Source: an uncultured Verrucomicrobia subdivision 3 bacterium (GTDB lineage Bacteria; Verrucomicrobiota; Verrucomicrobiia; Limisphaerales; UBA11358). From it: a stretch of 64,000 nt of DNA. Under the pieces are notes generated by a model that made no database searches, had not been told where the DNA came from, and saw only the letters and a list, made by a program, of their open reading frames with translations. Location of the stretch: positions 12,167-76,166 of the forward strand of contig CAIQWB010000102.1 in NCBI GenBank assembly GCA_903875465.1, read 5' to 3'. Positions 4,696 to 52,618 of the stretch are shown in pieces. Position numbers and translations under genes: made by a program. Numbering within the stretch: the first letter of the stretch is position 1; every line of letters begins with the position of its first letter.

Positions 4696-5835
4696 TCATG
4701 GATTCGCCGGATGGTAGTCGTGCCAGAGCCATTCGAGGGCTTCGGGGAGGGTTTGTTGTTTGACGGCGTGGTCGGTATGGCCGGCGTTGCGGGCGAAGAG
4801 AAATTGGTAATGGTAGCCCTTGGCGGCCAGCACGCTGGCCATATTTTCGTTGGCGACGACCCAGTCGTGCATGTTGTCGCACATGACATTGGGGTTAAAA
4901 AGGTCACGGTCGCCGACTTCGAGCCAGAGGCGAAGGGGTTTGACGGGGCTTTCGAGGATTAAGTGTTGATGGAATTCCCAGGCTCCACCGGGGGTGGCGG
5001 GATTATAGGGCCATTGCTGATTCACAAAGGTGCCGGAATAGGTGAGCACCCGATGGTATAATTCGGGATGGTACCAGGCCATGATCAGGGCGCAGGAACC
5101 GCCGGAGCTGCCGCCCATGGTGGCCCGGGCCCCGGGGTCTTTAGTGAGGGTGACGTGGCATTGCTTTTCCACCAACGGCAGCACTTCAGCTTCGACGAAC
5201 TCGGCATATTTGCCGGACATGGTGTCGTATTCGAGGCCGCGCTCGCTGCCCTGGGCATCGCCACTGCCGTTGCCGATGGAGATGGCCACCATGGCGGGCA
5301 CCCGCTGCTGGGCGATGAGGTTGTCCAAGGCGGTGAACAAGGCGTGATCGGGGCCGTCGGCGCCAACGATAAAGGGGGCAGTGGTGCCAGGGACGTATTG
5401 GGCGGGCACATAAACGGCCACTTTGCGGGTGTAGGGGGCCGGGTGGCTGGTGGTGACGATCAGTTTGCCGGGTTCCCCAGGCAACGTGGTGCCGAAGGTG
5501 CCGGGATCGCGGGCGATACCGGGGTAATATTTGCTGTCGGCCGAACTCATGGTGAAGTGGTAAACCCTCCCCTCCGGCACATTGGTGGATGCGGTCATTT
5601 CCGGGGCGGGCGGGTGCGCGGGGCCCAGGATGAAATTGCCCTCAACAGTGACGGACGGAAGGGTGCCGTCGGGCAAATCGGTGGCCGTGACGTAACCGGG
5701 CGTGTGGGCGTCGCGCGCAGGCGGAGCCGGGCGCGGCGGGCGTGACGGGGCGACCATGGCCGGTTGGGCGATGACCGGGGTGGTTAACACGGTGCCGAGG
5801 AGCGCGGCGAGCAGGGCTGACTTGGCCAGATTCAT
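4696..5835 (-). CDS. Secreted esterase-family alpha/beta hydrolase (putative esterase / enterochelin-esterase-like)
   Basis: Signal peptide MNLAKSALLAALLGTVLTTPVIAQP when started at ATG 5835. Contains MGGSSGGSCALIMAWYHPELY and NAGHTDH, typical of the 'putative esterase' fold. Confidence 0.7.
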   Translation of the reverse strand: MNLAKSALLAALLGTVLTTPVIAQPAMVAPSRPPRPAPPARDAHTPGYVTATDLPDGTLPSVTVEGNFILGPAHPPAPEMTASTNVPEGRVYHFTMSSADSKYYPGIARDPGTFGTTLPGEPGKLIVTTSHPAPYTRKVAVYVPAQYVPGTTAPFIVGADGPDHALFTALDNLIAQQRVPAMVAISIGNGSGDAQGSERGLEYDTMSGKYAEFVEAEVLPLVEKQCHVTLTKDPGARATMGGSSGGSCALIMAWYHPELYHRVLTYSGTFVNQQWPYNPATPGGAWEFHQHLILESPVKPLRLWLEVGDRDLFNPNVMCDNMHDWVVANENMASVLAAKGYHYQFLFARNAGHTDHAVKQQTLPEALEWLWHDYHPANP

Positions 5836-42970: not shown

Positions 42971-43652
42971 TGGAACTGATCGGCAAATTCTCACAAATGT
43001 GACCGGGCGCGATTGCGGCCAGCCAGGTGGTCAAAAATTGAACTAATTCGGCTTTGTGAGCGCATTCTTGCCGGGGGAGGTTGGGCCGACAAAACGCAAA
43101 GCCGGGGCCGTAGGCCTGGCCATTCAGGACACACGCATTGGTTTGGCATTCCCGCATTTGGCGTTCGGCTTTCGCCAGCGCCTCCGCCGGGGTGCCAGCC
43201 AATTCATATTTCCAGCCGACGAGGAGGCTTTGGGGGAAAAGGGCCCGCATTTTAGTGATCACCTTGGTCGCGGGTTCGAGGTGGATAGTCAGCGCCCCGG
43301 AACGGCTGGCAATTTTGGGCGAATCACAGGCGCGACCTTGCACATCGGTCACGCGACTGACTTTATAATCACATAGTGCGGCGACGTGAAAAGCCGCTCC
43401 GATATTCTCTGTGGCGCTGGCCTGCTCGAGCAAATGCAGCAGGTCGTCATTTGTGTCAAACAAGGTCAAACGACATGGTTCGGCGGGGCCGGGATGGGTG
43501 GCACCGCTGCCTTTGAGGCAAATCACTTCAAAACCCGCACGGGCCAGTTGGTTGCTTAAAGCAACCCCAAGCTCGCCTGTGGAGAAATTGGTCAGCCGCC
43601 GCACTTGATCGATCGGTTCAAAACTGGGTCCGCAGGTGACAATGACTTTCAT
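42960..43652 (-). CDS. Stand-alone CoaB-like protein (phosphopantothenate-cysteine ligase family)
   Basis: MKVIVTCGPSFEPID.VRRLTNFSTGELG resembles the CoaB ITN.SSG..G motif; also has the PKIAS segment. Its last 11 nt, including the stop codon, lie inside the inverted-repeat element. Confidence 0.62.
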   Translation of the reverse strand: MKVIVTCGPSFEPIDQVRRLTNFSTGELGVALSNQLARAGFEVICLKGSGATHPGPAEPCRLTLFDTNDDLLHLLEQASATENIGAAFHVAALCDYKVSRVTDVQGRACDSPKIASRSGALTIHLEPATKVITKMRALFPQSLLVGWKYELAGTPAEALAKAERQMRECQTNACVLNGQAYGPGFAFCRPNLPRQECAHKAELVQFLTTWLAAIAPGHICENLPISSNQA

Positions 43653-43749
43653 AAATGTTTAAAGCCAGCCACGAGTTTGATCTGGCAAAGATTTACTGGT
43701 AGCGAGCCGGGCCGCCCCGTGAACGGTTGGGAATGGTTAACACGGCTTT

Positions 43750-44520
43750 TCATGCGCCCAAAAATTTCTGCCGTGCCGAGGCGGACAAGGCATGCAAATC
43801 GAGGATGGTCAGAAAATCGATCGTCTTAAAATCTTGGTCCAAGGCGGGCGGACCGCAAATTTTTGCCCCCAGACTCAAGTAGGCCCGGAGCAGTTTGGGG
43901 ATTTTAACGGGTTCCGGCGTGAGTTCGTGCAGGGGACACTCACAGGCTGGCAAAGGGCTGACACGCCATGGTGGCGGAGCCAGATGATGGCGGCATAAAT
44001 CGGCATAGGCGGACGCGCCCACCGCCGGTGCTTGCGAGGTGAGTGAGCTGCAACCAAACAGGTAGCGGGCGCCGTGCTGCCGGGCATATTCCGCAATGCC
44101 TTTCCAGAGCAGGCCGAGCACCACCAGGTTGCGATGTTGGGGATGCACACAGGCACGGCCCAATTCAATCAATTCGGCCCGCAACGGTTCGAAGAGCTCC
44201 AAGGCAAATTCCTGTGCACAGTAATAGCCCAGGTGCGCGGCGGCATTCGGGCCGGTTTGCAGGCGGTAGGTACCCACGATGCTGGCAGTGGGCAGATGTT
44301 CAACGACGAGATGCTGGCAAACGGCGTCAAACGGATCTTCATCCCGGCCGGTCGCGTAGGATTGGGCCAGCCCTTCATTGAGTTCCACATTAAAGACCTG
44401 AAACCGCAATCTTTGGGCAGCCCCAACATCCCCGGCATTTTGGGCCAGCCGGATGGCATATTGGGCCGGGGAACTGACCGAGACGCGAAGGATGGCACGA
44501 TCGGTTTTCATGGCGGTCAA
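43750..44520 (-). CDS. OlsB-like GNAT N-acyltransferase (ornithine-lipid / 'hemolysin-like' acyltransferase family)
   Basis: AQRLRFQVFNVELNEGL...YRLQ... pattern typical of the Acetyltransf_5/OlsB family, as I recall it. Confidence 0.6.
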   Translation of the reverse strand: MTAMKTDRAILRVSVSSPAQYAIRLAQNAGDVGAAQRLRFQVFNVELNEGLAQSYATGRDEDPFDAVCQHLVVEHLPTASIVGTYRLQTGPNAAAHLGYYCAQEFALELFEPLRAELIELGRACVHPQHRNLVVLGLLWKGIAEYARQHGARYLFGCSSLTSQAPAVGASAYADLCRHHLAPPPWRVSPLPACECPLHELTPEPVKIPKLLRAYLSLGAKICGPPALDQDFKTIDFLTILDLHALSASARQKFLGA

Positions 44521-44609
44521 ATTATCAACTCCATAATTGGATTTAGCGATGGCAAAGTCATTTTAGCAGGCAATCTCGTCGCCGGATGCAGGCAAATCTG
44601 GTAGCGGCA

Positions 44610-44915
44610 TCATTTCTGGTTCGAGCGGAGTTGCTGCCGGATGCGCGCGCGGGCTGCCTCGGAAAGCTGCGGGGGCAAGGTTGCCACCAATTTATCCGGA
44701 TGTGCCTGGGCGGCATGGCGAAGAAAGATGATGTGCTGCCCATAGCGGCGGCACCATTGGCAAAGCAGAATGTGACAGCGCAGCCCCAACCACCGGCGAA
44801 ACGATAATTTGTGCTCCAAGGCCGCGGATTGCAGGCGGACGGCCGTTTTGCAATTCGGCGATAGCTCCAGCAGGCCCCGCAGCAGGGATTTTGCGATCTT
44901 CATCAACCAATTCAT
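44610..44915 (-). CDS. Small soluble zinc anti-sigma-like protein (zf-HC2, HxxxCxxC), paralog B
   Basis: 101 aa. SPNC...RCHILLCQWCRRY (H-x3-C-x2-C plus an upstream Cys). Alignable with the adjacent 102-aa paralog. Confidence 0.62.
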   Translation of the reverse strand: MNWLMKIAKSLLRGLLELSPNCKTAVRLQSAALEHKLSFRRWLGLRCHILLCQWCRRYGQHIIFLRHAAQAHPDKLVATLPPQLSEAARARIRQQLRSNQK

Positions 44916-44995
44916 GGTTTTTATTCACCCAACAACTCAAATACTTGCGCCACATTTTGGTCATGGCGAGCAGCAGCAAGTTTTCCGCGTTATGG

Positions 44996-45025
44996 TTGGT
45001 CGGAAAGTCGAAAGAATCCTTACAA
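44996..45025 (-). promoter_or_regulatory. ECF-type promoter candidate (copy B): TTGTAAGGA-N14-CGACCAA
   Basis: Minus-strand reading: AATAAATTGTAAGGA ttctttcgactttc CGACCAA. It overlaps the stop codon of anti-sigma paralog A and points at paralog B. Confidence 0.55.
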
Positions 45026-45328
45026 TTTATTACCCGCCACCATTTTCAGGTTTTTCAGGATGCGCTTTCGGGCGTCAATCGAAAGGCTGGGCAGCGTTTT
45101 AACCTGCTGGTCGACCTGGCGTCCGGCTTGCTGGAGAAACCTTAATTGTCCGGCATAGCGTTCACACCATACGCAGATGAGAAAATGCAAGCGCATGCGC
45201 AAGCGCGTGGACAGGGTCAGAGGTTGATCCAGCGACCGGGAGCTCAGGCGGGACATTTCGGCACAATTGGGGGTGTGGTTCCAGATCCACACAATTGCCT
45301 GCATTTTCAGTTTGGTGAAAGGATTCAT
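45020..45328 (-). CDS. Small soluble zinc anti-sigma-like protein (zf-HC2, HxxxCxxC), paralog A
   Basis: Start at ATG 45328 gives an ATGA overlap with the sigma-gene stop (translational coupling). Contains TPNC...LHFLICVWCERY. Confidence 0.65.
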   Translation of the reverse strand: MNPFTKLKMQAIVWIWNHTPNCAEMSRLSSRSLDQPLTLSTRLRMRLHFLICVWCERYAGQLRFLQQAGRQVDQQVKTLPSLSIDARKRILKNLKMVAGNKL

Positions 45329-46086
45329 TCGGCGATTCCCGGTTTGCCAAACCAATTGGTCTCCAGGCAACGACGCAGCGCCATGCGCGCCCGGTGGAGC
45401 ATTACCCAGAGATTGCTTTCCGAGATGTTTAGCAACGAGCAAATGTCCTTGCTGGCCACGCCGTCCACCTCGCGGAGGTTGAAAACGGCGGCAACATTCT
45501 TGGGGAGATTATTTGAGCAATCCTGGAAGGTTTTCCAAAACATTTCACTGTCCAGACTCGCCCCGGGACTGGCCCAATCCTGGGGGCCAAGCTCGTGAAT
45601 CCAGCCATCCTTGAAGAGGCCATCGGGAACGAACCGCTCGCCTTCCTCGTCCGAGTAGAATTCCAAGTCGGTGAACGGTGTTTCGCGGCTGGACTGGCGG
45701 TAATAGTCGTAAATCTTGTTTTTCAAAATCCCCACCAACCAGCTTTTCTCGGCGGCACGGCCGGCAAAACTCCTGCCCCCCTTGAGCGCGGCCAGGAAGG
45801 TTTCCTGCACCGCATCTTCCGCCCGGGCTTGGTCGCGCAAGCGGAGCAGCGCATATTTGAACAGGTAATCGCCATGCAAATCCACCCACTGTTCCGGATC
45901 GGAAAGCTGGCCGGTCGGCGGCGGATTTTCCGCCGGGAGCGGTGGTTGCGGTTGGTTTGGACGGTCAGTCGGCACGGGCTTAGTATCCGCCTTCAGCCAA
46001 AAAAATGCAATTCCCGAGCTGCGGCCGGGAAACCCGCGGGCGAAATAGTTTGTAAGGATTCGTTTTGGTCCACGACTCACCCCCAT
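45325..46086 (-). CDS. ECF-type RNA polymerase sigma factor; N-terminus uncertain
   Basis: Region 2 (DAVQETFLAALKG..., WLVGILKNKIYDYYR) and region 4 (ICSLLNISESNLWVMLHRARMALRRCLE). The first ~70 codons are Pro-rich and overlap promoter copy C, so an in-frame GTG at 45975 is a plausible real start. Confidence 0.85.
   Translation of the reverse strand: MGVSRGPKRILTNYFARGFPGRSSGIAFFWLKADTKPVPTDRPNQPQPPLPAENPPPTGQLSDPEQWVDLHGDYLFKYALLRLRDQARAEDAVQETFLAALKGGRSFAGRAAEKSWLVGILKNKIYDYYRQSSRETPFTDLEFYSDEEGERFVPDGLFKDGWIHELGPQDWASPGASLDSEMFWKTFQDCSNNLPKNVAAVFNLREVDGVASKDICSLLNISESNLWVMLHRARMALRRCLETNWFGKPGIAE
46050..46079 (+). promoter_or_regulatory. ECF-type promoter candidate (copy C): TTGTAAGGA-N14-CGACTCA
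   Basis: AATAGTTTGTAAGGA ttcgttttggtcca CGACTCA. Points toward the FMN-reductase genes. An ATG lies 6 nt after the CGACTC hexamer. Confidence 0.5.
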
Positions 46087-46308
46087 GCAAGCAAAGTGCC
46101 AAACGCAATTTCCCCCGTCCGGGCCAGCCGATGATCAGGGTGGTGCGGCGGCAAAAAGTTCCGTGGCAGAAGGCGCTTTCAAGGCTGCCAGCCACCCGCA
46201 GATCCTTGAATTTTCCCGGCTGGCCCGACTTCCGGCGGCCACGCCTGGCTGGCGATTTTCATCCTTCAACCCTTAACCCTCACCGCCAAATTATTAAATA
46301 AAACTATT

Positions 46309-46899
46309 ATGATCGTCATTATCAGTGGAACCAATCGAAACGGCAGCAACACCCGCAAAGTGGCTGCCCATGTGGAAAAAGCTTATGGCACGCTCGGTGT
46401 GCCCGCCCAAATCATCGATCTCGCCCAATTGCCGCCGGAGATATATTTACCGTCTGCCTATGATAAAACCCCGGCCGCTTTCCAGCCTTTCATCGATAAG
46501 ATTCTCGCGGCCGATGGATTGGTGGTCGTCACGCCCGAATATAACGGAGGTATTCCCGGCGCCCTGAAGTATTTTATCGACATGCTGCCGTTTCCGGACA
46601 GTTTTGACCAGCGGCCGGTTTGTTTTGTGGGCCTGGCGGCGGGGCTCTGGGGGGCCATGCGGCCGACCGAGCAGTTGCAGCAGATTTTTGCCTACCGCCA
46701 CGGACTGGTCTTTCCGGAGCGCGTTTTTCTGCCCGGGGTCAACAACCTGCTGGACTCTACGGGCCGGTTGCAGCCGGTCATCGAAAGAAATCTGCTGCAG
46801 CAGGCCACGAAATTCGCTCGATTTGTGGAAAAGCTCCGGGAGAAAAAATTTGCCCGGGCAACGGAAGCGCCGGCAAGCGTGAGTTTGCCCACGGCCTAA
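46309..46899 (+). CDS. NAD(P)H-dependent FMN reductase family oxidoreductase (paralog 1)
   Basis: MIVIISGTNRNGSNTRKVA...VVVTPEYNGGIPGALKYFID is an FMN_red fold signature. Confidence 0.82.
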   Translation: MIVIISGTNRNGSNTRKVAAHVEKAYGTLGVPAQIIDLAQLPPEIYLPSAYDKTPAAFQPFIDKILAADGLVVVTPEYNGGIPGALKYFIDMLPFPDSFDQRPVCFVGLAAGLWGAMRPTEQLQQIFAYRHGLVFPERVFLPGVNNLLDSTGRLQPVIERNLLQQATKFARFVEKLREKKFARATEAPASVSLPTA

Positions 46900-46903
46900 A
46901 TCC

Positions 46904-47455
46904 TTGGCACCCATGATTCTGATTATTAGTGGCACCAACCGGCCCGGCAGCAATACCCGCAAGGTGGTAGCCCAGTTGGAAGCCATTTATTCCGCTCTGA
47001 GTGTGCCGGTCCAGGTGCTGGATCTGGCGCAATTGCCCCCGAGCATTATTCTGCCTTCCGTTTATGCGCAGAAGCCCATCGAATTCCAATCATTCAGCGA
47101 CGCGGTGCGCGCGGCGGAGGGACTGGTGGTGGTGACGCCGGAATACAACGGGAGCTTTCCCGGCATATTAAAGTACTTTATGGACCTGCTGCCGTTTCCG
47201 GAAAGTTTTGAGCACCGCCCGGTTTGTTTTGTGGGGCTGGCCGCCGGCATGTGGGGTGCCCTGCGCGCGGTGGAGCAACTGCAGGCCATCTTTGGCTATC
47301 GCAACGCCCATATCTTTCCGGAGCGGGTGTTTATTCCGGGCGTTGCCAAAATGGTGGATGCGGCAGGGCGATTCGCGAATACGGACATGGAACAGCGCTT
47401 GGAAAAACAGGCGGCCGGGTTTGTGGATTTTGTAAAAAAACTCAAGGCTAAATAA
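46904..47455 (+). CDS. NAD(P)H-dependent FMN reductase family oxidoreductase (paralog 2)
   Basis: MILIISGTNRPGSNTRKVV...VVVTPEYNGSFPGILKYFMD. Tandem paralog of the previous gene. Confidence 0.82.
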   Translation: MAPMILIISGTNRPGSNTRKVVAQLEAIYSALSVPVQVLDLAQLPPSIILPSVYAQKPIEFQSFSDAVRAAEGLVVVTPEYNGSFPGILKYFMDLLPFPESFEHRPVCFVGLAAGMWGALRAVEQLQAIFGYRNAHIFPERVFIPGVAKMVDAAGRFANTDMEQRLEKQAAGFVDFVKKLKAK

Positions 47456-47456
47456 A

Positions 47457-47486
47457 TTGTAAGGAATCCTTCACCTCCTCGACCAA
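47457..47486 (+). promoter_or_regulatory. ECF-type promoter candidate (copy A): TTGTAAGGA-N14-CGACCAA
   Basis: AATAAATTGTAAGGA atccttcacctcct CGACCAA. ATG 47495 lies 9 nt after the CGACCA hexamer. Confidence 0.55.
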
Positions 47487-48064
47487 TGCTGGATATGAAC
47501 ATTAAATCAACCAACCGTTTCATCGTCCGCGTGGCTTTATTTTTGGCGATCGCCACCGCCGCCTTTCATTTGCCGGCGGCCGAGCCGCCAAAGGTGGGTG
47601 CCCCCACGCCGGACTTCACGCTTAACACCATGGATGCGAAGTCTGTAACGTTGAGTGCGGAGTACGCCAAACTGCCCGTGGTATTGATCGTTTTGCGCGG
47701 GTGGCCGGGGTACCAGTGTCCATTTTGCACCAGGCAAGTGCACGCGTTTGTGGAACGGGCCAAGGATTTTGCGGGCAAGGCTCGTGTCCTCATGGTTTAT
47801 CCCGGCCCGTCAGAAAATCTGCAAAGCCACGCCGGGGAATTCCTGAAGGGTAAAGGGTGGTCGGAAGATTTCACCTTCGTCACCGACCCCGATTTTACTT
47901 TCACTAAAAGCTTCGGCTTGCGGTGGCAGGCTCCCGGCGAGACGGCTTATCCGTCCACTTTTGTGATTGATACCAAGGGGATTGTGCAGTTCGAAAAAAT
48001 CACCAAAGGCCATGGTGGTCGCACGACTCCGGAAGAAATCCTGGCGGCTCTGGCCAAGCTCTAA
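47486..48064 (+). CDS. Secreted thioredoxin-fold redoxin / peroxiredoxin-like protein (CPFC)
   Basis: WPGYQCPFCTRQ CxxC motif. Signal peptide MNIKSTNRFIVRVALFLAIATAAF if started at ATG 47495, which fits promoter copy A better than 47486. Confidence 0.78.
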   Translation: MLDMNIKSTNRFIVRVALFLAIATAAFHLPAAEPPKVGAPTPDFTLNTMDAKSVTLSAEYAKLPVVLIVLRGWPGYQCPFCTRQVHAFVERAKDFAGKARVLMVYPGPSENLQSHAGEFLKGKGWSEDFTFVTDPDFTFTKSFGLRWQAPGETAYPSTFVIDTKGIVQFEKITKGHGGRTTPEEILAALAKL

Positions 48065-48315
48065 TGGCCACGGTCTTGCTATTGCTCGGCGGATATCTCC
48101 TCTTGGGGATGTTGTTTGCCGTTCCCTTTGCTTTCATAGGGGCGCAAAGAATTGACCCCCACGCGGCGGGGGCAGGCTGGGGTTTTCGCCTCCTCCTCAT
48201 TCCGGGTGCGGTGGCATTTTGGCCCTGGCTGTTGCATCGGTGGCGCACGGGCGTGCATGAGCCTCCGGTTGAGCGTACGGCTCACCGTGAGGCTGCGCGG
48301 AAAGGCCGGCCATGA
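48064..48315 (+). CDS. Small two-TM hypothetical membrane protein
   Basis: TAATG overlap with the upstream gene and ATGA overlap with the downstream gene. Hydrophobic helices LLLLGGYLLLGMLFAVPFAFI and FRLLLIPGAVAFWPWLL. Confidence 0.55.
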   Translation: MATVLLLLGGYLLLGMLFAVPFAFIGAQRIDPHAAGAGWGFRLLLIPGAVAFWPWLLHRWRTGVHEPPVERTAHREAARKGRP

Positions 48316-48803
48316 TCCAACCATTGCGCCAGCTCCATCGTCGCGCGACTCTGATACTGGGCATTTTTGTGCCCGCGGCGTTTGCCACCGGCCTCATTTT
48401 GCGCACGCCCGCGCCCACTATGCCCGGGTTTTCTCCGGGACTTGGCCTGGCACCTCAAGCCATGACGAGCACGGGTTGGTGCCGCACGAATCTGTTTCCG
48501 AAAGGTGCGATAACCGTGCGACTGTTCCGGGAGAACCCGCCACTTTCGCGGGCGGTCGTCAGTTTTTCAGCGGATCCTGATTTTCGGCAACCCGATTTGC
48601 TGGTTTATTGGCTGCCGGGAAGCCCCATGGTGGCGGACGCACTGCCGGATAGTGCCACTTTATTGGGCGAGTTTGCGGCGCCGGCATTGCCCCTCCCAAC
48701 TGAAGCCTCCGCCCGCCCGGGGGTGTTTGTCCTATACAGTCTGGCGGATAACAAGATAGTGAATATCTCCCGGCCGGCCCTTATCGGCGAGCTCAACCCC
48801 TGA
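48312..48803 (+). CDS. Hypothetical membrane-anchored protein
   Basis: N-terminal TM ATLILGIFVPAAFATGLIL. Translationally coupled within the operon. Confidence 0.55.
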   Translation: MIQPLRQLHRRATLILGIFVPAAFATGLILRTPAPTMPGFSPGLGLAPQAMTSTGWCRTNLFPKGAITVRLFRENPPLSRAVVSFSADPDFRQPDLLVYWLPGSPMVADALPDSATLLGEFAAPALPLPTEASARPGVFVLYSLADNKIVNISRPALIGELNP

Positions 48804-48817
48804 CCATTATTTAATTC

Positions 48818-49855
48818 ATGTCCCTCCAATACCAGGCGGTCCAATGGAACCGGCAAAAGCGCCTGTACGATGCCGTGCTGGTGGGTGGGGTGGCGTTATA
48901 CCTCTTGGGTTTTGGCGCGGTGACGGAATTCCTATTCCCCAACATCACCGAGGAAATTTTGCTGATGCGGGCGTTTGGCTCGGCCGCCTTTATTTTGCTT
49001 CACATTATTCTGTGCATCGGTCCGCTGGGTCGCCTAAACGCGGGCTTTTTGCCCCTGCTGTACAATCGGCGTCATGCGGGGGTGACGTTATTTCTGCTGG
49101 CATTGATCCATGCGGTGATGGTGGTTACGACATACCATGCCGGCGGGGACACGAATCCGATTGCCAGTATCTGGGTGTCCAGTCCGTTGACTCATTCAGT
49201 GGCGGGGGTGCCTTTCCAGGCGTTCGGCTTTTTGGCATTGGTGATTTTGTTTTTGATGGCGGCAACCAGCCATGATTTCTGGCTGGCCAATTTGAGCGCG
49301 CCGGTTTGGAAATCGCTGCACATGCTGGTTTATGCCGCCTATGCGCTGCTGGTCTTGCATGTCACCTTTGGGGTGCTGCAAGCGGAAACCAGCCTGGTTT
49401 ATGCAGTGACGATGGCGGCTGGCCTGGTCACGGTGCTGGGGTTGCACGGCTTGGCCGCGAGCAAGGAAGCGCGGTTGGATCGAAAAATAAACGCCCCGGA
49501 TACTGACGGTTGGGTGGAGGCCGGTGCAGTGGCGGATATTCCCGATAACCGCGCGCGCATTGTGTGTGTGGCTGGCGAGCGGGTGGCTATTTTTAAGTAT
49601 GCGGGGAAAATCTCCGCCGTTTCAAATGTTTGTCAGCACCAGAATGGGCCGCTGGGGGAGGGTAAAATAGTGGCGGGCTGTATCACCTGTCCCTGGCATG
49701 GCTATCAGTATTTGCCGGAGACGGGGGCTTCGCCGCCACCCTTTGTGGAGCGCGTTCCCACCTTTCAAGTGCGCTTGAAAAACGGCCGGGTATGGGTAAA
49801 TCCCCAGCCAAATCCTGCCGGGACCAGGGCGGAACCGGCGGTGATTGAGCTATGA
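48818..49855 (+). CDS. Fusion of a ferric-reductase-like (YedZ/MsrQ-type, His-rich) transmembrane domain with a C-terminal Rieske [2Fe-2S] domain
   Basis: Six TM segments with conserved His (LLHIILC, LIHAV, SHDFW, LHMLVY, LHVTFG). Rieske motifs CQHQNGPL ... CPWHGYQY. Confidence 0.78.
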   Translation: MSLQYQAVQWNRQKRLYDAVLVGGVALYLLGFGAVTEFLFPNITEEILLMRAFGSAAFILLHIILCIGPLGRLNAGFLPLLYNRRHAGVTLFLLALIHAVMVVTTYHAGGDTNPIASIWVSSPLTHSVAGVPFQAFGFLALVILFLMAATSHDFWLANLSAPVWKSLHMLVYAAYALLVLHVTFGVLQAETSLVYAVTMAAGLVTVLGLHGLAASKEARLDRKINAPDTDGWVEAGAVADIPDNRARIVCVAGERVAIFKYAGKISAVSNVCQHQNGPLGEGKIVAGCITCPWHGYQYLPETGASPPPFVERVPTFQVRLKNGRVWVNPQPNPAGTRAEPAVIEL

Positions 49856-51583: not shown

Positions 51584-51606
51584 AAATTTTTAATTTTCGA
51601 ATTCGA

Positions 51607-51636
51607 TTGTAAGTTTTGCCGCGCGTGGCCGACGAA
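51607..51636 (+). promoter_or_regulatory. ECF-type promoter candidate (copy E, weaker): TTGTAAGTT-N14-CGACGAA
   Basis: ttcgaTTGTAAGTT ttgccgcgcgtggc CGACGAA, 35 nt upstream of the DUF2934 ATG. Confidence 0.45.
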
Positions 51637-51670
51637 TCATTGTAATCCACTAATAATACAATTGCCAAAA

Positions 51671-51871
51671 ATGAAAAAAACCAGGAAAAAAAATCCGCCC
51701 GCTGAAATCAAGCTTCCACCGCCGGTAGTGTTTGACTATGAACTGGAAATCAATCGCCGGGCCTATGAATTATGGGAAGCGGCGGGCGGCGGGCATGGTG
51801 ACGACCTGCGTCACTGGCTGGTCGCTGAGCGTGAATTTCAGGCGCGCCGCCAGTCCGACAAGGCGCAGTAA
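51671..51871 (+). CDS. DUF2934-type small protein
   Basis: INRRAYELWEAAGGGHGDDLRHWLVAEREF matches the DUF2934 pattern (R.AYELWE..G...G.D...W..AE). Confidence 0.7.
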   Translation: MKKTRKKNPPAEIKLPPPVVFDYELEINRRAYELWEAAGGGHGDDLRHWLVAEREFQARRQSDKAQ

Positions 51872-51927: not shown

Positions 51928-52128
51928 CCAGCAGAGGTTTTCAACCGCAAACCATTTCCCTGCGGCATAACCACCCAATTACCTCGGACGACGACGACCG
52001 GTTTCCACCCGAAGGGGCAGATTTCCCGCTTGCGTTTGGGCAACCACCAGCAAATCCCCATGGGAAACCGGAATGGAGACCTTTCTGCGGGCCAAACCAA
52101 CCCAATAAGTCAAAAATATTGAAATAAG

Positions 52129-52158
52129 GTGTAAGGAATGATGTTTAATTAAGACCAA
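52129..52158 (+). promoter_or_regulatory. ECF-type promoter candidate (copy D): GTGTAAGGA-N14-AGACCAA
   Basis: AATAAGGTGTAAGGA atgatgtttaatta AGACCAA. ATG 52166 lies 8 nt after the AGACCA hexamer. Confidence 0.5.
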
Positions 52159-52165
52159 CCATTGT

Positions 52166-52618
52166 ATGAAAAAACTATCATTGATTCTGCTTGTGCTGGG
52201 CCTGGCGCTGCCAGTTTTTGCCCAAACCAAAACCCTCCTCAACCTGGACCGTGACGGTCTGGCCATCCAAGGCTATGACCCGGTGGCCTTTTTTACCGAC
52301 CAAAAGCCGGTCAAAGGCGACGCGAAATATGTGTTCAAGCATGAAGGGGCCGTCTACTTTTTTGCATCCAAAGAGCACCGGGACCTTTTCAAGACGAACC
52401 CGGCCAAGTATGAACCGGTGTTTGGCGGGTATTGTGCTTATGGCGTTTCGCGCAACAAGCTGGTGGAAATTGACGTGGATGCCTTCCAAATTGTGGATGA
52501 CAAATTGCTGCTGCAATACAGCAAATCCATCCGTGAGGATTTCAATAAAGATGCCAAAGCCAATCTGGCCAAAGCGGATGCCAACTGGCCGGCGCTGGTT
52601 GCCAAGAAAGGCAAATAA
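52166..52618 (+). CDS. Secreted YHS-domain protein (GGYCAYG type)
   Basis: Signal peptide MKKLSLILLVLGLALPVFA. GYDPVAFF...YFFASKEHRDLF..NP.KY.P.FGGYCAYG. Confidence 0.72.
   Translation: MKKLSLILLVLGLALPVFAQTKTLLNLDRDGLAIQGYDPVAFFTDQKPVKGDAKYVFKHEGAVYFFASKEHRDLFKTNPAKYEPVFGGYCAYGVSRNKLVEIDVDAFQIVDDKLLLQYSKSIREDFNKDAKANLAKADANWPALVAKKGK

Follow-up and report, generated by a model that had tools for sequence, protein, structure and literature searches.

One ECF sigma factor gene followed by two tandem ZAS anti-sigma paralogs, the second behind a putative sigma-type promoter, in a lake-water Verrucomicrobium

Pairs formed by a sigma factor of the extracytoplasmic function (ECF) class and its anti-sigma factor are the textbook example of a one-to-one regulatory switch, and synthetic circuits make wide use of them as orthogonal parts. 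Here we examine a locus in which one ECF sigma gene is followed by two tandem genes encoding related, soluble proteins of the zinc-associated anti-sigma (ZAS) type, the second of which lies behind a promoter-like box of the type expected for the sigma factor itself. It is carried by contig CAIQWB010000102.1 (positions 12,167 to 76,166, a stretch of 64,000 nucleotides (nt) hereafter called the window) of a Verrucomicrobium of the subdivision 3/Limisphaerales kind from lake water. The question is why one sigma factor would need two such partners, which we call paralog A and paralog B. The answer that we consider probable, while leaving appreciable room for others, is that the locus encodes a cytoplasmic switch for oxidative stress, of the ECF13/ECF293 type, in which the anti-sigma role is split: A would be the sensor, and B would be induced by the sigma factor to re-capture it.

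The preliminary description of this DNA, made from its letters alone, had reported that the stop codon of the sigma gene overlaps the start of a 102-amino-acid protein and that a 101-amino-acid paralog with equal Cys/His spacing follows after 104 nt. Both statements hold. An ATGA at 45328-45325 of the (-) strand joins the TGA of the sigma gene to the ATG of A, exactly 104 nt separate A from B, and the two proteins share 36% identity (E 2e-16), with C22, H48, C52 and C55 forming the pattern Cys-x25-His-x3-Cys-x2-Cys in A and B alike. The same description had made its reading depend on the conservation of these residues in orthologs: the four predicted zinc ligands are kept without exception in 34 relatives, which belong to several phyla, in all B-type orthologs and in the alignment of the A-type family (A1). 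It was also right that neither protein has a membrane segment, the maximal Kyte-Doolittle mean over 19 residues reaching 0.93 in A and 0.56 in B. The two proteins are strongly basic, with an isoelectric point of about 11. Furthermore, when the window is compared with the related locus L003, A and B have the same ratio of nonsynonymous to synonymous substitution rates (dN/dS), 0.24, and that of the sigma gene is 0.11. As judged from these substitutions, both paralogs are under purifying selection and B is a maintained gene.

The assignment of the paralogs to anti-sigma factors is based on profiles and on the register of their ligands. The ZAS domain is characterized by H-x3-C-x2-C together with a further Cys/His ligand located 23-26 residues ahead of the His, a pattern shown by A and B alike. 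A scores 51.8 bits on the NCBIfam model NF052368 (named antisigmaE and described as 'anti-sigma factor family protein'; cut-off 50), which matches 29/29 members of A1 and gives 63.4 bits, well above the cut-off, for the B-type protein of locus L007. Comparison of the family profile with RsrA by hhalign gave a weak similarity (E 0.019) but an exact register, H18/C22/H48/C52/C55 corresponding to H7/C11/H37/C41/C44; the RsrA sequence used was checked against PDB 5FRF. The AlphaFold2 (AF2) models of A and B are all-helical, with a predicted local distance difference test (pLDDT) of 78 and 75 and a low predicted template modelling score (pTM) of 0.48 and 0.44, respectively. In both, helices 1 and 2 span residues 3-18 and 22-34, helices 3 and 4 of A (39-51, 53-78) correspond to one helix (39-71) in B, and helices begin at C22 and at C52/C55; the known fold of the domain is a three-helix bundle with a fourth helix added. 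The family comprises 4255 representatives of 50%-identity clusters at E <=0.001 and 954 at E <=1e-10, nearly all of them annotated as 'hypothetical'. A word-indexed homolog search with B returned 3 proteins, and B-type orthologs were therefore taken from the loci described below. The Pfam model Pvc16_N gave weak matches to 21/29 members of A1 (best E 5e-6; 14.2 bits for A of the window against a cut-off of 27), which probably reflect a chance likeness of helices.

The second part of the question concerns the box that separates the paralogs. The motif TTGTAAGGAWTC-N11-CGAC is present in three exact copies in the window (P1, P2 and P3 in Table 1), for a chance expectation of 0.14-0.6. P2 is located between A and B, as the preliminary description had noticed, and the TAA stop codon of A (45022-45020) is indeed embedded in its -35 box TTGTAAGG (45025-45018). 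A weight matrix trained on other loci only, the window being left out, gives 29.6-30.5 bits for these three sites, versus 21.9 and then 17.1 bits for the next best ones in the 64 kb. Moreover, in 22 loci sampled from Verrucomicrobiota, Acidobacteriota, Zixibacteria, Planctomycetota and others, all of which encode homologs of this sigma factor, and in the window (161 kb altogether), 41 exact TGTAAGG-N15-CGAC sites were found versus 0.06 expected from shuffles. Their consensus is tTGTAAGG(A/T)(T/A)T, 12 nt, CGACnAA; they are often located 8-13 nt ahead of a start codon and are always oriented toward a gene. Among four genomes, the box is the sole conserved block of the A-B gap, and the position of P1 is conserved in L003, L004, L005 and L084. 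Both the sequence and the spacing of the window motif fit the promoter that has been deduced for sigmaE of Neisseria (-35 GTMAGBWTT, 12-13 nt, -10 CGTCTAAH), the -10 being CGAC here and CGTC there (PMC2893595). No Rfam family was found in 43500-48500.

The arrangement is not peculiar to the window. The order sigma, overlapping A, motif, B is found in the window, L003, L004, L005, L084, L085 and L086, and the P0123 contig repeats it at the level of gene order (sigma, A, B), the motif not having been checked there. L007, L008, L009, L010 and L021 carry the sigma gene, the motif and a B-type gene alone, with no A, whereas L001, L011 and the P0086 locus carry an A-type gene alone. In L006, the motif would drive a small open reading frame (ORF), an MsrP-like gene, an MsrQ-like reductase fusion and, as the last gene of the operon, a B-type gene. 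The box precedes every sigma-adjacent B-type gene examined (12 loci with DNA), and in five of the seven loci with A and B (window, L004, L005, L084, L085) A ends on the very TAA that forms part of the -35 box. The B-type gene of L008 is monocistronic, the -10 sitting 12 nt before its ATG. These gene orders suggest that B-type proteins are able to serve as the sole anti-sigma factor beside this sigma.

A neighbour-joining tree sets the A clade apart from the B clade in Verrucomicrobia and shows a separate clade pair in Pyrinomonadaceae/Acidobacteriota. In the latter, the genes for the two paralogs (AS1 and AS2) are arranged as sigma, AS1, motif, S8 protease, AS2 in L015, L016 and L019 and as sigma, AS1, motif, AS2 in L014. 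Tree and gene orders together indicate that a second paralog in a predicted sigma-dependent operon arose independently in Acidobacteriota, and that an anti-sigma paralog behind such a promoter is a recurrent design. The AS2 gene of Pyrinomonadaceae overlaps the stop of the subtilase gene (Peptidase_S8 + CBM_48; L015 5031-6795, L016 3614-5373, L019 4958-6687), which may point to a form of the circuit that involves a protease. Immediately downstream of B, and convergent to it, L005 (5359-5607, -) and L084 (4746-5609, -) carry a further, second ECF sigma gene accompanied by a classical zf-HC2 protein of 82 amino acids of its own. Two contigs bear unexpected labels: L011 (CALQJI020000008.1, 'MAG: Klebsiella pneumoniae') and L006 (DATMRF010000134.1, 'Candidatus Acidoferrum sp.') encode sigma factors 67-74% identical to the Verrucomicrobial one in the same locus layout and are probably mis-binned or mislabelled.

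The sigma ORF carries the Pfam domains Sigma70_r2 and Sigma70_r4_2 and scores 189 bits on NCBIfam TIGR02943 (cut-off 162). The coordinates of the preliminary description take in the full ORF of 253 amino acids. Its true start is probably GTG 45975, giving 216 amino acids, because the gene is called in orthologous loci from the GTG equivalent to V38 and because the longer ORF crosses the divergent promoter box of the opposite strand. The match to the TIGR02943-type family profile starts at residue 73 of the longer ORF, and the N-terminal sequence LSDPE(Q/R)WV is kept among orthologs. The window contains no further homolog of sigma, A or B.

The region upstream of the sigma gene has, on its strand in the window, no promoter site of its own type, the top weight-matrix score being -6.9 bits. 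The window (45976-46010, -), L003 (~525-567), L004, L008 and L021 have in common TT(T)GCAT, 16-17 nt, a GATACT/CATACT/AAACTT-like hexamer and 6 nt before the sigma start. This conserved pattern, recognized by eye, looks like a promoter of the housekeeping type from which a leaderless sigma mRNA would be made, and in the window its TTGCAT-N17-GATACT version is under the threshold of the sigma-70 scan. Several promoters of the sigma factor's own type are likewise found just 8-13 nt ahead of start codons. A terminator-like hairpin (46011-46031, -; TTCCCGGCCGCAGCTCGGGAA then TTGCATTTTT), which may be due to chance, lies directly upstream of the putative sigma promoter and overlaps it. Unlike the window, L001, L010, L085 and L086 have an ECF-type motif before the sigma gene. 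Therefore, autoregulation of the sigma gene differs within the group.

Sigma type, partner type and promoter probably place the system with the TIGR02943/ECF13 (now ECF293) sigma factors and the soluble anti-sigma factors of the MseR/HrsE type; this placement was made from TIGR02943, the partner type and the promoter match and not from the ECF Hub group models. ECF18 (RpoT) was also considered as the TIGR02943 group. It was ruled out since ECF18 is, according to the literature, the toluene-linked RpoT group, and ECF13/ECF293 was preferred because the promoter matches and the ZAS partner is soluble. The pairs sigmaE (NMB2144)/MseR (NMB2145) of Neisseria and RpoE2/HrsE of Haemophilus belong to ECF group 13, which was merged into ECF293; they have a small cytoplasmic ZAS anti-sigma and msrAB as main target, and a review lists RpoE of N. 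meningitidis, which has a soluble anti-sigma, as the model for ECF293 (PMC2893595, PMC7907618, PMC7826278, PMC8999054). The locus of the window resembles them in several respects: (i) a small cytoplasmic ZAS protein directly follows the sigma gene, with equal Cys-x25-His-x3-Cys-x2-Cys spacing; (ii) the promoters are of one type (GTMAGBWTT, 12-13 nt, CG(T/A)C-AA); and (iii) the regulon, a predicted one in the case of the window, deals with oxidative protein damage, through msrAB there, through Redoxin, FMN (flavin mononucleotide) reductases and an MsrQ-like protein here, and through msrAB and msrP in relatives of the window. However, Neisseria and Haemophilus have one anti-sigma of ~67-75 amino acids, whereas the window encodes two paralogs of ~100 amino acids with an extra N-terminal helix. 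Furthermore, the sigma operon is autoregulated in the former, whereas in the Verrucomicrobial host the sigma gene of the window lacks an own-type promoter and B is located behind a sigma-type one.

The feedback logic also has a precedent. In Corynebacterium glutamicum, housekeeping promoters serve sigH-rshA, and only rshA is read from a SigH-dependent promoter, for which a role in quick shutdown was proposed (PMC3489674). There, however, the two roles fall to a single anti-sigma gene, the SigH-dependent promoter lies upstream of rshA, and the pair SigH-RshA (ECF12) differs by its ECF group and motif (PMC3489674). The SigR-RsrA pair of Streptomyces coelicolor (ECF12) also includes a soluble ZAS protein of ~100 amino acids, with C11/H37/C41/C44 in register with C22/H48/C52/C55, and its shut-off relies on fresh or re-reduced anti-sigma. 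It differs by the weak similarity given above, by the positive autoregulation of SigR together with rsrA and by its single anti-sigma. The NepR paralogs of alphaproteobacteria (Methylobacterium, Sinorhizobium) provide a case of more than one anti-sigma paralog per ECF system, but NepR is not a ZAS protein, acts through the PhyR partner switch, and its paralogs are, as a rule, not in tandem but scattered (PMC4814048). No description of the layout sigma, A, promoter, B was found in the literature searched. Hence, each element and the feedback logic have a studied precedent, and what is new is the split between two paralogs. The preliminary description had presented the negative-feedback layout as going beyond the textbook: this is supported by the comparison of loci as far as the two paralogs are concerned, but the logic itself was already known from rshA of C. 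glutamicum (PMC3489674).

In the proposed mechanism, sigma and A would be produced jointly from a promoter of another type than the sigma factor's own. Since their ORFs overlap at the ATGA, A would be made in step with sigma; this overlap and the lack of a terminator point to their co-transcription. The adjacency is repeated in all related loci. A would bind sigma and keep it inactive through its zinc-bound anti-sigma domain, until oxidation or modification of the Cys ligands releases it. We infer that an oxidant is the signal because of the redox-repair genes of the neighbourhood and by analogy with the work on Neisseria and Haemophilus. Free sigma would then guide RNA polymerase to P1 (two FMN reductases), to P3 (periplasmic Redoxin and MsrQ-like protein) and to P2 (B and an OlsB-like protein). 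Fresh, reduced B would likewise bind sigma, re-capturing it and ending the response. Since the sigma gene of the window has no own-type promoter, this loop would be net negative, and a self-limiting, pulse-like response is expected.

Several observations weigh against this mechanism. B is just under the NF052368 cut-off, with 46.2 bits; on Pfam zf-HC2, A stays below the cut-off of 22.2 bits with a score of 13.2, no match is obtained for B, and 8/29 relatives give weak matches. The profile check that the preliminary description had proposed for both proteins therefore comes out divided, in favour for A on NF052368 and for the ligand register of RsrA, and short of it for zf-HC2 and for B. No solved anti-sigma structure was retrieved by PDB sequence search or by Foldseek against PDB, the latter with an AF2 model of pTM 0.48. 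The locus was found in DNA metagenome runs only, and no RNA run contains it. The A-B gap shows no terminator-like hairpin and no unusual RNA structure (z -0.36), and therefore B is probably also made by read-through from sigma-A. A sigma-type promoter for B is supported by the match to Neisseria sigmaE and by the box at 12/12 loci, and P2 is probably not the sole route to B. In addition, L001, which lacks B, has the motif before olsB, and P2 may thus have begun as an olsB promoter; the loci with an own-type motif before sigma indicate that the net-negative loop is not universal. Lastly, sigmaE of N. meningitidis was not induced by oxidants (PMC2893595).

Some of these points would be accommodated if B were an incidental duplicate, i.e., if P2 were an ancestral sigma-dependent promoter of olsB and a copy of the anti-sigma gene had been inserted before olsB, leaving B as a redundant back-up. 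The motif directly before olsB in L001, which has no B, the second motif between B and olsB in L004 and L085 and the missing terminator between A and B all fit this main rival. We nevertheless judge it unlikely, since L005, L008, L010, L021 and L084 have a B-type gene behind the motif without olsB next to it, since the A and B clades are old, distinct and equally constrained, and since the design evolved a second time in Acidobacteriota. About as small a chance is given to the view that A and B are two sensors that both hold sigma and differ in signal or threshold, so that full release would need inactivation of both (an AND gate or second threshold). It is kept in play by the N-terminal helix, which differs strongly between the clades (nearly invariant W-x-W-x-H-T-P-N-C in the A-type, L-S-P-x-C in the B-type), and by the extra Cys47 of B in the window. 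However, Cys47 is not present in orthologs, and the conserved place of B behind a sigma-dependent promoter is more simply explained by feedback.

B could also act on another sigma factor or bind A as an antagonist, which the second ECF sigma gene downstream of B in L005 and L084 and the NF052368 score just under the cut-off might suggest. This is very improbable: that second sigma factor has its own zf-HC2 protein, the window has no other sigma or ZAS homolog, B is the only anti-sigma-like gene beside this sigma in five related genomes, and the C-terminal LSxEARxRI helix common to the whole family is kept in B. Least probable of all is that the box is a repressor site or a chance repeat and that sigma, A and B are always transcribed from one upstream promoter. 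The -10 that differs from that of Neisseria and the restriction of the locus to DNA runs could be read in this way. By contrast, the excess of sites over expectation, their constant orientation toward a gene, their fixed short distance to start codons, the match to the promoter deduced for a studied relative and the presence of the box upstream of sigma itself in L001, L010, L085 and L086 argue for a promoter. Sensing by A and sigma-induced re-capture by B thus remain the reading that we prefer.

Table 1. Features of the sigma locus and its surroundings in the window
Feature	Position	Strand	Basis or content
ECF sigma gene	probable 45325..45975; longest ORF 45325..46086, to ATG 46086	(-)	Pfam, TIGR02943, ortholog starts
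Paralog A, 102-amino-acid soluble ZAS anti-sigma (predicted)	45020..45328	(-)	NF052368, ligands, ATGA overlap with sigma
Paralog B, 101-amino-acid soluble ZAS anti-sigma (predicted)	44610..44915	(-)	paralogy to A, ligands; downstream of P2
Promoter P2, sigma-family type (putative)	44999..45025	(-)	TTGTAAGGATTC-N11-CGAC in A-B gap; 29.6 bits
Promoter P1 (putative)	46050..46076	(+)	same motif; faces away from sigma, toward FMN reductase genes; 30.5 bits
Promoter P3 (putative)	47457..47483	(+)	TTGTAAGGAATC-N11-CGAC directly before Redoxin gene; 29.6 bits
Putative non-ECF promoter of sigma-A operon	45982..46010	(-)	TTGCAT 46010-46005, 17 nt, GATACT 45987-45982, 6 nt, GTG; read by eye
OlsB-like N-acyltransferase (ornithine-lipid synthesis)	43750..44520	(-)	Pfam Acetyltransf_5
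Two tandem NADPH-dependent FMN reductases, likely P1 targets	46309..46899, 46904..47455	(+)	Pfam FMN_red, E 2e-34 and 1.5e-31
Likely P3 operon	47486..49855	(+)	secreted Redoxin/AhpC-TSA, two small proteins, MsrQ-like Ferric_reduct-Rieske fusion; Pfam
MsrQ-like Ferric_reduct membrane domain fused to Rieske domain	48818-49855	(+)	Pfam

Neighbouring genes may belong to the regulon of this sigma factor. The OlsB-like protein encoded behind B is below the cut-offs of the NCBIfam OlsB models. The gap of 89 nt between B and its gene is devoid of motif, and the gene is probably co-transcribed with B. In relatives, the motif is found directly before olsB in L001 (5752-5778), L004 (5372-5397) and L085 (4733-4758). 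Since olsB follows the anti-sigma genes, often with a motif copy of its own, ornithine-lipid synthesis looks like a conserved target of this sigma factor in Verrucomicrobia; no link of olsB with an ECF sigma was found in the literature searched. In L001, a unit of 103 nt is repeated 4.1 times with 97% identity between the anti-sigma gene and the olsB promoter (5319-5739).

On the other side of the sigma gene, the 230-nt leader from P1 to the first FMN reductase gene (46077-46308, +) contains a 63-amino-acid ORF (46085..46276) that starts 8 nt past the -10. The leader of L003 has an ORF of equal length, of which only MQAK.Q is conserved. The gene order of the P3 operon is repeated in the P0002 and P0047 contigs; the Redoxin ortholog is called at 189 amino acids, equivalent to a start at 47495, and ATG 47495 is probably the start in the window. 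Despite its MsrQ-like protein, Redoxin and FMN reductases, the window encodes no MsrA/B or MsrP, whereas relatives carry divergent MsrAB and motif-driven MsrP/MsrQ. For instance, in L006 (5114-7814) an MsrP-like molybdoenzyme precedes a protein in which an FAD/NAD/2Fe-2S reductase is joined to an MsrQ-like domain. The MsrQ-like fusions of the window and of L006 have an unusual self-contained electron supply for periplasmic repair. Of the two weaker matrix matches, the stronger one (51606-51637, +) is located ahead of a DUF2934 ORF (51662..51871). The other (52128-52159, +) is 7 nt before a gene for a secreted YHS-domain protein (52166..52618), followed by DoxX and DinB_2-like genes, and in L086 too the motif precedes a YHS gene. 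The genes behind these two sites are possible further members of the regulon.

These data do not describe a new kind of system. They probably show a redox switch of the ECF13/ECF293 type whose ZAS anti-sigma has been duplicated, one of the copies, B, being located behind a sigma-type promoter. More tentatively, and with somewhat less than even odds, they may be seen as a two-tier ZAS circuit in which a resident sensor is combined with a sigma-induced 'reset' anti-sigma of different redox properties, giving a self-limiting pulse. Such a circuit would have at least two origins, one in Verrucomicrobiota and one in Acidobacteriota, and would be tied to ornithine-lipid synthesis in Verrucomicrobia. 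A large anti-sigma family missed by Pfam can now be annotated, and the promoter motif can serve to predict regulons in uncultured Verrucomicrobiota, Acidobacteriota and other groups. The data also point to possible control of ornithine-lipid synthesis and of MsrPQ-type repair by this sigma factor. One sigma factor with two anti-sigma paralogs, one made together with it and one apparently induced by it, can be viewed as a natural and conserved layout in which adaptation and pulse shaping of a redox response could be tested without positive autoregulation.

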